Assembly: GCF_035083965.1 (NCBI RefSeq)
Contig: NC_089722.1
Coordinates: 25,419,081 to 25,483,080 of the forward strand
Direction: 5' to 3'
Length of the DNA stretch: 64,000 nt
Source of the DNA: Branchiostoma lanceolatum
Taxonomy: Eukaryota
A model generated the notes under the pieces. That model saw only the letters and a list, made by a program, of their open reading frames with translations. It did no database searches and was not told where the DNA came from. Position numbers and translations under genes: made by a program. Shown one piece after another: positions 23,879 through 60,518 of the stretch. The first letter of the stretch is position 1. Every line of letters starts with the position of its first letter.

Positions 23879-24005
23879 TAATCTCCAAGGAGATCTAACG
23901 GTTGCAAAGACCGTATCCAACTGGCAAAGGGAGTTTTCTTGCAATAAAAACTCCTTTTACCAGTTGGATACGGTCTTTGCAACCGTTAGATCTGCTTGGA
24001 GATTA
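23879..24005. mobile_element. 127-bp palindromic MITE: TIR TAATCTCCAAG...CTTGGAGATTA; 9-bp TSD CCAGGCAGG / CCATGCAGG
   Basis: Near-perfect inverted repeat. This explains the two ORFs (23797..23982 - and 23902..24177 +) that both start MQRPYPTGK. Termini match the element at 60380-60518. Confidence 0.7.
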
Positions 24006-24314
24006 CCATGCAGGTACGTTAGTGGGACCGGACAAAGGCTATCAAACAAGGCTGGCATCCAGGCTATGGCTGAATGTAGGAATTCAACAAAAAAAGATAC
24101 TAAAACCCAACCGAAGTTCACACAGACAGGCCAAAAACTACACCTCCATTTCTCATATCGGTAAATTTCTCATGTAGGCAATAACTCGGAAGTTTCCCTT
24201 ACAGAGCATGTGTTCGCAGCAGTTCACGGAGTGACTGAGGCCTATTACGAAGCCGTAAATACAGCAACAAGTCTTCTTGACATTTCCATCGGAAGAAACT
24301 GGAGACTACAGACC

Positions 24315-24362
24315 ATGGCCTCGCCTGATGTAGATAAACCTGAAGTGCAGCTTGAACTTGAA
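24315..24362 (+). CDS. Phospholipid scramblase (PLSCR-like), putative first coding exon (MASPDVDKPEVQLELE)
   Basis: ccATGg at 24315. Donor GAA|GTAAGA at 24363. Phase 0 matches the next exon. The true 5' exon could lie elsewhere. Confidence 0.4.
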
Positions 24363-24550
24363 GTAAGATTATTATGGTTACCTGGGTTTGACCTATCTTT
24401 TCTAAGAAAATGCTGAAATGGTTGTATTCTCCATTTGACAGAGTTACATTTATAGCAATGGCATGTCATCTGTTTTTGTCATTTTTTGCGCGTGCTCCAT
24501 GACATTGACCATTGTGATGACATTGACCCTTGTGACGTCTTACGTCCCCA

Positions 24551-24683
24551 GCCTATAACAGCCCAGCCGAGTCACGTGGTCCTGACGGATCAGGCGCCTG
24601 TTCCTATTGGCTGTCCTCCCGGGCTGGAGTACCTCACACAGATCGACCAACTACTAGTCAAGCAGAAAGTAGAACTTCTAGAA
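24551..24683 (+). CDS. PLSCR-like exon 2
   Basis: Acceptor cgtccccag|[45 protein letters not shown] (human PLSCR1: [25 protein letters not shown]). Donor GAAG|GTGACT. Confidence 0.75.
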
Positions 24684-25034
24684 GGTGACTGAAATAGTTT
24701 GAATATAAAGTTAGTTCAAAATTAACCATATTTTGGAAAGCCTTCTTCCTCCATATTTACATGCATTTTTTGGAAGTGTTTCTTTCCCTTATTTTCCAAG
24801 TCCATCTGACTGTTTATCTTGTCTTCCGCTGTTTTACTCTTCTTCTGGAAAGATGGCTGATTTTTCGCTGGTCAGTATTTCTCTGAAGTGGAACATTATA
24901 TTGTTAGGATATTAGGTATGATCATTAACTCGGTAGAACTAACGGCACAGTTAGTAAGGGCACAAAACGTTCACTATCAATTTATACATCTTACACTTAC
25001 AGTATGACAACTATTTCTGTCTTCCTATATATAG

Positions 25035-25112
25035 TGCTCTCGGATATCGAGACCAAAAACAAATATGTCATCAAAAACTCTATGGGACAGAAGGTTTACT
25101 ACGCTTACGAAG
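25035..25112 (+). CDS. PLSCR-like exon 3
   Basis: Acceptor cctatatatag|T. VLSDIETKNKYVIKNSMGQKVYYAYE (PLSCR1: [26 protein letters not shown]). Donor AAG|GTGAGA. Confidence 0.75.
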
Positions 25113-56788: not shown

Positions 56789-56932
56789 CTGTCTAGGGGG
56801 AGATCCATTGTACATGCGGGTTGGGCTGTTGGACCTGCCCTTGGGGGGAGTTCCCCTGTTAGGACTGGGGGAGCGATAGCTGGAGGCAACAGTGGAGGGT
56901 GGGGCGGGGGAGTAGCCAAGGGGTCGTCCACC
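56789..56932 (-). CDS. coiled-coil gene exon 3 (Ser/Pro-rich)
   Basis: Acceptor ttttttttctcccatccag|G. GGRPLGYSPAPPSTVASSYRSPSPNRGTPPKGRSNSPTRMYNGSPPRQ. Donor CAG|GTAAAG. Confidence 0.6.
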
Positions 56933-57527
56933 CTGGATGGGAGAAAAAAACACCTGAGTCAAGAACTGATACAGAACTTTCAGCTTCTCTTATTGGTAGA
57001 GTTCTAATTCTATTCTACAATAAAACAAAACAAAGAGACTTCATGTATTACAACAGCTGTATTATGTAAATCTTTCAGTATACATTACCAGAATATGTCA
57101 CAGCTGTGGGTCCATCTATTGTTCCTCACAAGTATCAAAGTTCTAAAGCCTTTTAAAGCTGTAGGAACCTGAAAGCCAGGACGTTCTAAAGTGGCCTTCT
57201 AATAAGTTCTATCCATTACCTTTCATGGTCAACAACAAGTCAAAAGGTTCTGCTCCATGCAAACACATACAGTCAACCTTTCTACTGGTTCAACACTGAA
57301 TAATTGATAAATGAGAAAACTACTATACACAAGTGAGATATTATTATTAAGTGCTGTTATCAAACAGCTCACAACTGCCCTTAGGGGACAAGCAAGCTGT
57401 CGCCTTCCCGCAAGGAAAGTAAAAACAATTCTAACATTTCATATACAGTATCACAAGTTCAATACCTTTGGTTACATGTAGTAGATTCTATGACATGCCT
57501 TTTCCAACTTTTCAATATGAAACATAC

Positions 57528-57586
57528 CTTTGATTTTGGTGTACTTTGGTACTGTGGGTCATAGCTGGGAAGACTGTAGTGGTTTG
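57528..57586 (-). CDS. coiled-coil gene exon 2
   Basis: Acceptor tttgttcttgcag|C. (A)NHYSLPSYDPQYQSTPKSK. Donor AAG|GTATGT. Confidence 0.55.
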
Positions 57587-58628
57587 CTGCAAGAACAAAA
57601 AAAGACAAAAAGGGTTAATAATGGTATGGCTATGACAGTATTTTTAAGAGACAGAATGTCCAAATAAATTGTCTTTTAGACTGATATAGACCAAAACATG
57701 AAGACACAAAATTGTGTTATACAATTTACTACAATAATACGGCATGTACATGATATGAAAAAAAAAAAACTCTTTATATATCTTTTACAGAAGATACTTG
57801 TGATAAGACCCATCTAATTCTTTTCATACAAGAATTCCATTCATCAAAACCAGGATCATGCAACATCTGATGCAGCAGCCCACCTGCCACAGTGTAAACA
57901 AGTATCAATTGACGGACGCCTATTGGTGGACAATGGACACAATGTAACTCATTCTCAACAAATTGTCAAACAATCTGTATAAACAAAACTTCATCCCTCC
58001 CCACCCTCCCATTTTGGGAAAGCTACGTACCACGCATCCAAACCAAGCTAAAAGTAACCTTGAAGTAGCAAACTAACACAAAAGGTGCAGTCTGGCATGA
58101 AATGGAAAATTCTGTAGAATCTATCCCTGGGCACTCATTTAGATGGTCAAAATTGAACTGATTGAGGACTAAATGAGGACACATTCTAGAAGCTTAAGGA
58201 TGGTTGTGGGAATTAGTAGGCTTTGTCCTTGCTGAAATCTGAGATCTCAACTTTAGGAAACCTGAGTATAGGATAAAGAAACATGTAAACAGTGTGTCGT
58301 CCTGGCTGCCTAAACACAGATTCAAAAGAGAATGAAAAGTGGTTGGATGTTGGCCATTGTATGCCACTGTTTATAGTACACTGTGTCAAAAAAAAGGGCA
58401 ATGTCGGTTTATACAGAGTTCTGATAGTGACATGGAAATAACAATGTTACCTACACTGAGAGAAAATGATGGCAACAATGTTCAAGTACACCATTCTCCA
58501 AAAAAAAAATGATTTAATACGCATACAAATAAGTATATCCTACAGTGCTTAAAGTAAAGCCAAAATAATTCTCCCAGGCTTAAGAACAACTAGACATTTT
58601 CAAATAACAACCATCGATTACTTGTCTG

Positions 58629-59461
58629 TTACCCAGGAGGAGATATGATACCATCCCAGCATTCCTCAATACACATCCTGCAATACACACCCACAGATGG
58701 CTGACTGTGGGCAAGAAGCATATAGGCTTTTCATGTTGCTTTTGATATTGCAGCAACTGGTGCAATTTGATCGTTAGATTTTCTTCTCTTGACTTGTCGA
58801 AAGACTTGAGTAGTCCACGAGACTGTCTGACCTTTGTAATTTGTGTACAACTTTCTAAATTGTGTCACAAACACTTGCGGAACATTGTACACATATTCAC
58901 CACAAATTTTGTGTCCAAACTTGACCAAACTACAGTGTTTTTCTGAAAACACTGTTGATTGATGATATCATACTACTTGTGCATCAGAAAAACATAAATG
59001 CACCGAAAAGCACCCGTGGGAAAGTGAAGAAAATCATATTTGATATTGTTTTTGTAATAATTGTAAACAAACATAATTTTCTTTACTTTACCATGGGTGC
59101 TTTTTGGTGCATTTGGGTTTTTCTGATGCACAAACAGTATGATATCATCAATCAACAGTGTTTTCAGAAAAACACTGTAGTCTGGTCAAGTTTGGACACA
59201 AAATTTGTGGTGAATATTTGTACAATGGTAAACAAGTGTTTGCGACATAATTTAGAAAGTTGTACGCAAATTACAAAGGTCAGACAGTCTCATGGACTAA
59301 TCAAGTCTTTTGACAATTCAAGAGAAGAAAATCTAACGATCAAATTGCACCAGTTCTTGCAATATCAAAAGCAACATGACAAGTCTATATGATTCTTGCC
59401 CACAGTCAGCCATCTGTGGGTGTGTATTGCAGGATGTGTATTGAAGAATCATGGGTTACCA
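58629..59461. mobile_element. ~830-bp foldback element (two ~390-bp inverted arms at ~90% identity, ~70-bp centre) inside the 3.8-kb intron 1 of the coiled-coil gene
   Basis: 58629 gttaccca...ttcctcaatacacatcctgcaatacacacccacagatggctgactgtgggcaagaa... reverse-complements 59401-59461 ...ttcttgcccacagtcagccatctgtgggtgtgtattgcaggatgtgtattgaagaa...tgggttacc. The arms match throughout (e.g. 58860-59000 vs 59100-59250). This explains mirror ORFs 58955..59392(+) and 58973..59155(-), both starting MIDDIIL. Confidence 0.85.
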
Positions 59462-60379
59462 GTTGTATCAAAAATTCAGCAGTACAAGTTGTAGAACAAA
59501 GACAGAACAAGAGAAAGCTGTTACCTATATTGACATACACCATTCGGAACTGGTTACAGCGCACATTGCAGACGTTACGGTCCATGTTTCCACCAACACT
59601 CGCAGGGAAACGAGAGGAGCTCCAACAAACGTTACAATGTTACCGCCAGAAATGTATCGACAGTGTCCCAAACAGCTGTAACCCACGCTGAGCGGTTACG
59701 GCTACTTGCTCCATTGATTGCTTTAGAATGCAAACCAATCATTGTGCGCTTTCACCCCCTGTAAATATATCCTACAGGCTGTTCTTATGCAGATCACCAT
59801 GTTTATGCAAATTAAAATGAGAGGGAAGCAACTTGTCTTCCATACCATTAGCAACACTTATGGCAACCTTTGTGTCCACCACAAAGGGATCTTTTTGCTT
59901 CACTGGTCTTCTAAACTACGATATTTGAGCTTGAAAATGTTAATCAATTCAAGTGTAGCACAGAATGTATACACGGCAAGTCAGTGCAATTGTTCCTATT
60001 GTTTTTTCAGAAGAGAAAAAAATGTACAAAGAAAATTAGAAAGTACAGTTTGGCCTGCAAAGAACGAATTCTTCTTTTTTTTCTATACAATTTTGTGCTT
60101 ATTTTAGCACAAAGCATTGTGAGGTTTGTCATTCAGGGATGGAAATAAATCTTTACTCTGTTACATGCAAAATCTTTTAATTCAATCAATCACTTCAAGT
60201 TTCATAGTTAAACATGAAAAGCTGTACTTGCATATTGGACTAGAACTAAGAAGAAATATCAAATACTACCGGTAGTAGTGGATCCTATTGATCAATGCTA
60301 ATATAAAGCTTTGTAGCTACATGTGGTGCGCAAGCTCCCCCTGTTGGTTTACCACTGATTAACACATAGCAAAGGTTAC

Positions 60380-60518
60380 TAATCTCCAAGCAGAAGTAGA
60401 AAGGCAAAATCGTAATGTCTCAGTACCGGGAGCACTGGGCTTTTTTACCCCAGTGGCCAATGGATATAGTCTTTGTCGACATAATGATTTTGCCACCAGA
60501 AGATCTGCTTGGAGATTA
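60380..60518. mobile_element. 139-bp MITE; TIR TAATCTCCAAGCAGA...; same family as 23879-24005
   Basis: TAATCTCCAAGCAGAAGTAGAAAGGCAAAATCGTAATGTC ... GACATAATGATTTTGCCACCAGAAGATCTGCTTGGAGATTA. Flanks aaaggttac / aaagtttgt form an imperfect 8-9-bp TSD. Confidence 0.65.

Follow-up and report, generated by a model that had tools for sequence, protein, structure and literature searches.

Families of miniature inverted-repeat transposable elements with 9-bp target-site duplications in Branchiostoma lanceolatum and Branchiostoma belcheri

Described systems and the lancelet elements

Mutator-like elements (MULEs) are characterized by target-site duplications (TSDs) of 8-11 bp and often by long terminal inverted repeats (TIRs) (PMC6446971). 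An example for small relatives of such transposons is Tm1, which comprises elements resembling MITEs (miniature inverted-repeat transposable elements) as well as foldback-like elements. Tm1 produces 9-bp TSDs and can be driven by a Phantom-type Mutator transposase; it shows no target consensus, and its composite inverted repeats contain repeated internal motifs (PMC3169594). This article describes elements of comparable structure in a stretch of 64,000 nucleotides from the lancelet Branchiostoma lanceolatum (contig NC_089722.1, positions 25,419,081 to 25,483,080), which is called the window below. It holds at least five MITE-like elements. Four of them, numbered (i) to (iv), had been located by a preliminary description made from the sequence, and all four were found again at the same positions; a fifth, degenerate copy raises the count of four given there. 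Together with copies in Branchiostoma belcheri, they almost certainly represent genuine MITE families with 9-bp TSDs.

The window elements share several features with MULEs. Their 9-bp duplication lies within the range of 8-11 bp, and long inverted repeats are present: 109 nt in element (iii), at least 40 nt in a B. belcheri copy (copy A), and arms of 61 nt in element (i). The copies are non-coding and need a transposase in trans. Two of the five, (i) and (ii), lie near the 5' ends of genes. They differ from MULEs in that they start with TA, whereas MULE ends are usually G-rich, and no intact element ties a MULE transposase to these termini. The presence of MULE transposases in cephalochordates is itself disputed (PMC6446971).

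The likeness to Tm1 and to Foldback/Phantom elements, known from root-knot nematodes and as FB in Drosophila, lies in the architecture. Elements (i) and (ii) and B. belcheri copy A are palindromes over their whole length, and the TIR of element (iii) repeats its own terminal motif. The lancelet elements differ in having no tandem arrays of 13-15 bp repeats in their inverted repeats. No transposase was found for them either.

Another group to be considered is formed by MITEs of the Merlin/IS1016 type, which are likewise short and non-coding. Merlin transposons were reportedly described by Feschotte in 2004 as making TSDs of 8-9 bp, a range that includes the 9 bp seen here; the difference is that the duplication in the lancelet elements is always 9 bp and never 8. 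Since Merlin also makes duplications of this size, TSD length alone does not separate it from Mutator.

Finally, amphioxus has MITEs of its own, LanceleTn-1 to -4 and ATE-1, of which LanceleTn was reportedly described by Osborne et al. in 2006. These are small inverted-repeat elements located near genes in the same host genus and belong to the same class. LanceleTn was described in Branchiostoma floridae, and 68 kb of DNA of the B. floridae type showed no copy of the present elements.

A common terminus and a 9-bp duplication

The feature that unites the elements is a conserved end of 15 nt, 5'-TA[A/C]TCTCCAAGCAGA. It was derived from 14 termini of seven independent elements, five in the window and two in B. 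belcheri, and positions 4-6, 9-10 and 13-15 are invariant in all of them. The core CTCCAAGCAGA, at no more than one mismatch, occurs 12 times in the window, compared with 0.98 expected and with a maximum of 4 in 100 shuffles. Two of these matches delimit the fifth copy. The core matches at 40663 and 48044 were rejected as exon sequence conserved in all species, and weak matches at window positions 14950, 16063 and 45373 and at 13466 and 17520 of a B. floridae-type locus (L009) were judged to be due to chance.

Beyond this end, the window elements have little in common, their mutual similarity being limited to 17-18 terminal bases. The preliminary description had called the termini related, and they do recur in all copies; the end conserved in all of them measures 15 nt, and elements (ii) and (iii) have only their first 17 nt in common. 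A full-text search of the literature for the terminal 12-mer returned unrelated PCR primers only, and a scan of metagenomes for the TACT-type terminus gave no match.

The second feature is the TSD. When element boundaries are set at TA...TA and the flanking 9-mers are compared, the seven independent elements score 9/9, 9/9, 8/9, 8/9, 8/9, 6/9 and 3/9 (Table 1). Thus, five of the seven have a 9-bp TSD at 8/9 or better (p = 1.2e-4 each). In random intervals of the window, the probability of a chance match is 4.5e-6 for 9/9, 1.2e-4 for at least 8/9, and 0.012 for at least 6/9. The repeats proposed earlier for elements (i), (ii) and (iii) hold at these scores; the flanks of (iv) agree less well, and the fifth copy has no recognizable TSD. 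Flank lengths of 7, 8, 10 and 11 nt were also compared and gave no match. A hAT origin with an 8-bp TSD is excluded, since the 8-bp flanks of (i) to (iii) match at only 0-2 of 8 positions.

The Repbase rule for assigning non-autonomous elements calls for an equal duplication length and for terminal positions 1-11 that align, with at most one mismatch, to those of a classified element (PMC4455052). If the copies are compared with one another in this manner, all intact copies agree within the limit except element (ii) of the window haplotype. In the reference haplotype, element (ii) agrees as well. The family may already be catalogued in Repbase.

Table 1. Position, structure and flanking 9-mers of the elements in the window and at the B. 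belcheri locus L008
Element	Position	Description	Ends	Left 9-mer	Right 9-mer	Match
(i)	window 23879..24005	TAAT-type MITE, 127 bp, whole element one hairpin	TAATCTCCAAG[G/C]AGATCTAACGGTTGCAAAGACC	23870..23878, CCAGGCAGG	24006..24014, CCATGCAGG	8/9
(ii)	window 32726..32900	TACT-type MITE, 175 bp, palindromic		32717..32725, TGCGTCACC	32901..32909, TGCGTCACC	9/9 in both haplotypes
(iii)	window 51898..52890	TACT-type non-autonomous element, 993 bp		51889..51897, CATATCTGC	52891..52899, TATATCTGC	8/9
(iv)	window 60380..60518	TAAT-type MITE, 139 bp	perfect over 15 nt	60371..60379, AAAGGTTAC	60519..60527, AAAGTTTGT	6/9
Fifth copy	window 980..1107	old degenerate MITE, probably TAAT-type, 128 bp	TTATCTACAAGCAGATGTAGG and CCTACATCTGCTTAGAGATGT			3/9
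B. belcheri copy A	L008 73-248	perfect TIRs of at least 40 nt	TAATCTCCAAGCAGATCC...	CTCGGAGGT	CTTGGAGGT	8/9
B. belcheri copy B	L008 17311-17404	94 bp	TACTCTCCAAGCAGAGGTTGATGG...	GCCATCTAT	GCCATCTAT	9/9

Structure and relationships of the elements

The MITEs range in size from 94 to 176 bp. Element (iii) is larger and slightly exceeds the usual limit of 800 bp. The complementary arms measure 15 nt in the old copies and reach 109 nt, at 99-100%, in element (iii). The arms of element (i) are 95% complementary, and folding of its DNA gives -63 kcal/mol (z = -23). Element (iv) is older than element (i).

The TIRs of element (iii), at 51898-52006 and 52781-52890, measure 109 and 110 nt. They consist of two blocks of 100% identity, the sole difference being one T in a T-run. 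Each TIR contains two copies of the terminal motif GCAGAGGTTGGTGGGG, one inverted relative to the other. Such a doubled motif would fit repeated binding sites for a transposase.

Judged from alignments between species, the copies fall into two related families, a TAAT-type and a TACT-type, with the 15-nt terminus in common. The TAAT-type includes elements (i) and (iv) and B. belcheri copy A, which resemble one another over about 45 nt at each end. The interior and the right end of (iv) also resemble copy A. The TACT-type includes element (iii) and copy B of B. belcheri, together with a terminus at position 11150 of another B. belcheri locus, L005; element (ii) has no more than its first 17 nt in common with this family. 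Copy B agrees at its right end with the TIR of (iii) over about 38 nt. The L005 terminus aligns with the right TIR of (iii) and with about 100 nt of subterminal sequence (52676-52780) at 82-88% identity; it has the same doubled inverted motif, with a G-to-T change in both motif copies.

Element (ii) had been taken for a deletion derivative of an element of the (iii) type. This was rejected because only 17 nt are common to both. Copy B of B. belcheri, with its 94 bp, is a genuine miniature of the (iii)-type element.

Occurrence in other haplotypes and species

The B. lanceolatum reference (L002; GCA_927797965.1, OV696686.1, 24.606-24.628 Mb) is colinear with window positions 22062-44672 at 92-98% identity. 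The window also contains an intronless open reading frame (ORF), at 34084-35907, that encodes a KLHL24-like protein. This protein is closest to that of B. lanceolatum (519 of 532 aligned residues identical), followed by B. floridae at 94% and B. belcheri at 92%; an exact-match look-up found no such protein on record. Given this ranking and the colinear alignment, the window is, relative to the reference, another B. lanceolatum haplotype or individual, or else comes from a very close relative.

Elements (i) and (ii) occupy the same sites in the reference haplotype, the former with an identical sequence. For (ii), the right end there is ...CTTGGAGAGTA, followed directly by TGCGTCACC, which gives perfect TA...TA ends and a perfect 9-bp TSD. 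Since this end is perfect, the G/C deviation seen in the window at the same end of (ii) is a later mutation.

The syntenic loci of B. belcheri (L001) and B. floridae (L003) have neither element (i) nor element (ii). A segment of about 395 bp around element (i), at 23774-24167, has no counterpart in either species, and element (i) may therefore be nested in a larger lineage-specific insertion. The interval 28830-32985 spans about 4 kb in the window and only about 130 bp in B. belcheri, and is about 2.2 kb longer than in the B. lanceolatum reference. It holds a diverged internal duplication of 1.75 kb, with 74-79% identity between the repeats at 29419-29966 and 31178-31713.

Independent copies were found elsewhere. 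In B. belcheri, an unrelated locus (L008) carries two clean copies, A and B, and two partial ends. Copy A is a palindrome over its whole length, and copy B recurs in another haplotype of B. belcheri (L010). The dispersed copies thus comprise the five in the window, the two complete ones in L008, and the single (iii)-type terminus in L005, which is duplicated in a further locus, L006. Homology of the ends between the two species extends well past the 15-nt core. A further B. lanceolatum locus (L004, 21.7 kb) and the B. floridae-type DNA (L003, L007 and L009) yielded no convincing copy, but these samples are too small for absence to be claimed.

Evidence for the families can be provided by observing their termini, and the duplications next to them, at other insertions, and the preliminary description had made its proposal depend on both. 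The termini were found at other loci and in B. belcheri, where the 9-bp duplications were reproduced at 9/9 and 8/9. Inverted repeats, a fixed TSD length, the lack of coding capacity and the presence of several copies likewise bear out the view that these are non-autonomous DNA transposons. Perfect inverted repeats or TSDs, found in element (iii), the reference-haplotype (ii) and both complete copies of B. belcheri, point to recent activity in the two species. The occurrence of perfect-ended copies in B. lanceolatum as well as B. belcheri also suggests that the transposase is active today or was so recently.

Search for a transposase

As had been stated earlier, the window has no recognizable transposase. 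A Pfam scan of all its stop-to-stop ORFs of at least 75 aa outside host exons detected no transposase domain, and a tblastn search of all loci with a fragment of PF20700, described below, found nothing in the window.

A possible link comes from a protein search. When the ORF across the right end of element (iii) was compared by phmmer with 1.8 billion representative proteins, one match was obtained, P0158, a chimeric B. belcheri gene model. The locus of P0158 is L005, the one carrying the (iii)-type terminus at 11150. Inward of this terminus lies a Helicase_C fragment, followed by a hAT-like (FAM200/ZBED5 RNase-like) fragment and then, at 13.3-14.1 kb, by a frameshifted relic of PF20700, "Mutator-like transposase", 2.2 kb inside the terminus. 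In this relic, profile positions 109-264 of 357 are represented; the E-values range from 1.7e-6 to 1.4e-5, and the composite score is 27.7 bits, compared with a cut-off of 26.5. The relic is the sole link, and a weak one, between these termini and a Mutator transposase. A second terminus was searched for in L005 and L006, and none was found.

L005 and L006 are two parts of B. belcheri JALCYT010000066.1 (1.066-1.090 and 1.289-1.309 Mb). They represent a duplication of at least 18 kb, with 94% identity including the flanks, whose copies are 220 kb apart. Both are dense in transposon relics annotated as protein-coding genes (Helicase_C, hAT-like, PF20700). L006 also has an OTU-protease-like ORF at 13047-13484, and L005 a tandem array with a 79-bp unit at 18861-20791. 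The relic at L005 13300-14100 places PF20700 in a cephalochordate genome; Mutator-like transposases in amphioxus were not confirmed by a published survey (PMC6446971).

Models for the mobilization of the elements

The explanation favored here, with modest confidence, is that the elements are non-autonomous cut-and-paste MITEs of two families, mobilized in trans by a transposase that is likely of the Mutator superfamily. In this model, a DDE transposase whose gene lies elsewhere in the genome would bind the common terminus and probably also the subterminal repeats of the terminal motif. Next, the element would be excised and re-inserted through cuts staggered by 9 bp, and repair of the gaps would leave the 9-bp TSD. 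The transposase itself could, on a finely balanced judgement, belong to the animal PF20700 group of Mutator, of a Phantom/Foldback-like kind. The preliminary assignment to Mutator can be kept in about the same spirit, as a call that might go either way: the 9-bp TSD and the 109-nt TIR fit, but Merlin is also compatible with them, and a transposase is linked to the termini only through a decayed relic, 2.2 kb inside one of them in B. belcheri.

Several observations weigh against a Mutator origin. Described Mutator-like ends are G-rich, so that termini starting with TA are atypical. The PF20700 relic is partial and frameshifted, and Helicase_C and hAT-like fragments stand between it and the terminus in a segment rich in transposons. 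Among 5.8 billion proteins its only relative is P0159, which is encoded in its own segmental duplicate, L006; for this reason, the association of relic and terminus may be coincidental. The relic looks old and the MITEs look young, and no autonomous copy that bears these termini was found. A clean empty site was also not obtained for (i) or (ii): the flanks in B. belcheri and B. floridae are too diverged or have larger indels, and both elements are present in both B. lanceolatum haplotypes. Lastly, Mutator-like transposases in B. floridae could not be confirmed by Dupeyron et al. 2019 (PMC6446971).

The alternative that survives best, although it is considered unlikely, is that the MITEs belong to another or undescribed cut-and-paste lineage that makes 9-bp TSDs, the PF20700 relic being an unrelated neighbor. 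The fragments that part the relic from the terminus would be expected in that case, as would the OTU-like and integrase-like pieces at the same locus; the relic has no intact relatives, and TA...TA ends are atypical for Mutator-like elements. However, a Mutator-like relic no more than 2.5 kb from the single homologous terminus returned by an unbiased protein search is improbable by chance. Moreover, to our knowledge, regular 9-bp TSDs are typical of just two of the described eukaryotic superfamilies, Mutator (with Rehavkus, Phantom and Foldback) and Merlin (PMC6446971, PMC3169594).

Mobilization by a Merlin (IS1016-like) transposase is a weaker candidate and seems quite improbable. It would account for a 9-bp duplication within the Merlin range, and no transposase is firmly tied to these termini. 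Nevertheless, nothing Merlin-like was encountered in about 260 kb of Branchiostoma DNA, which was examined without Merlin reference sequences, and the sole transposase relic near a homologous terminus is the Mutator-like PF20700. Merlin termini are reported to resemble the ends of IS1016 (GG...) and not to start with TA.

Two further alternatives are scarcely credible. If the elements were Stowaway-like MITEs of the Tc1/mariner group, TA would be the TSD and the element proper would start at [A/C]TCTCC; TA does bound every intact copy on both sides, but five of the seven elements have 9-bp direct repeats (8/9 or 9/9) directly outside it, which an enzyme duplicating TA would not make, and TA as the sole duplication is thereby excluded. 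Immobile palindromes, whether chance structures or functional ones such as regulatory hairpins or small-RNA precursors with a common motif, would suit the very stable hairpins of (i) and (ii) upstream of genes, but not identical ends that recur, with a different 9-bp duplication each time, at unrelated loci as well as in a second species, nor the lack of the elements at the syntenic sites of sister species, nor an Rfam search of the window that gave no match.

Returning to the Mutator model, a more specific version can be formulated. In it, a Mutator-type lineage (Phantom/Foldback-like, PF20700) with unusual TA-initiated termini was recently active in cephalochordates and was kept in both B. 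lanceolatum and B. belcheri, the MITEs being its footprint. This is put forward tentatively, as a conjecture with less than an even chance of being right. If correct, it would resolve the dispute over whether non-vertebrate chordates have Mutator-like elements, and a possibly still active element could be used as a genetic tool in amphioxus.

Uses and significance

Annotation. The ends TA[A/C]TCTCCAAGCAGA and the 9-bp duplication together define two MITE families, and they can serve in the annotation of Branchiostoma genomes and in the search for an autonomous partner. Since MITEs are routine in amphioxus genomes, the finding changes no concept.

Mutator in chordates. If the partner is Mutator-like, it would be a record of Mutator activity in a cephalochordate, which a broad survey could not confirm (PMC6446971). 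A confirmed Mutator partner would have some value, since the attempt of Dupeyron et al. to verify such transposases in B. floridae was unsuccessful.

Effects on genes. The gene model for a scramblase starts about 310 bp downstream of element (i), and the KLHL24-like ORF lies about 1.2 kb downstream of element (ii). Being placed just upstream of these two genes, the hairpins could affect their regulation or act as sources of small RNAs.

Other features of the window

The window has a G+C content of about 42%. Its gene order is phospholipase A2, scramblase, KLHL24-like, SMAP, MRPL50 and CCDC62, and it is the same in B. belcheri and B. floridae.

Several other repeats were observed. One is a large foldback palindrome at 58655-59455, with arms of 388 nt that are 92% complementary and a loop of 25 nt. 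It was rejected as a family member, as its ends are unrelated to the common terminus; it is probably another transposon. Inverted-repeat pairs resembling MITEs of other families lie at 47655-47930, 39913-40114, 45885-46615 and 44929-46743. A piece of the element at 39913-40114 is also present in B. belcheri at a non-syntenic position (L001 441-497). Close to it, with respect to window position ~39871, the reference haplotype has an insertion of its own of about 210 bp (L002 16300-16500) with long inverted ends. On both sides of this insertion lie direct repeats, CGACAC(T)AATGATGA, and it represents a structural polymorphism of another repeat family.

The ORF at 48459-48720, which ends in YRCDFCGRDCHSRIGLFSHSRCC, resembles the zinc-knuckle tail of a non-LTR retrotransposon, and a related piece of 53 nt lies at 60664-60716, 150 bp downstream of element (iv). 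Simple repeats include a long (CA)n microsatellite at 1390-1530, which gives rise to spurious ORFs, and a perfect tandem duplication at 20940-21103, consisting of two copies of an 82-bp unit with 100% identity.

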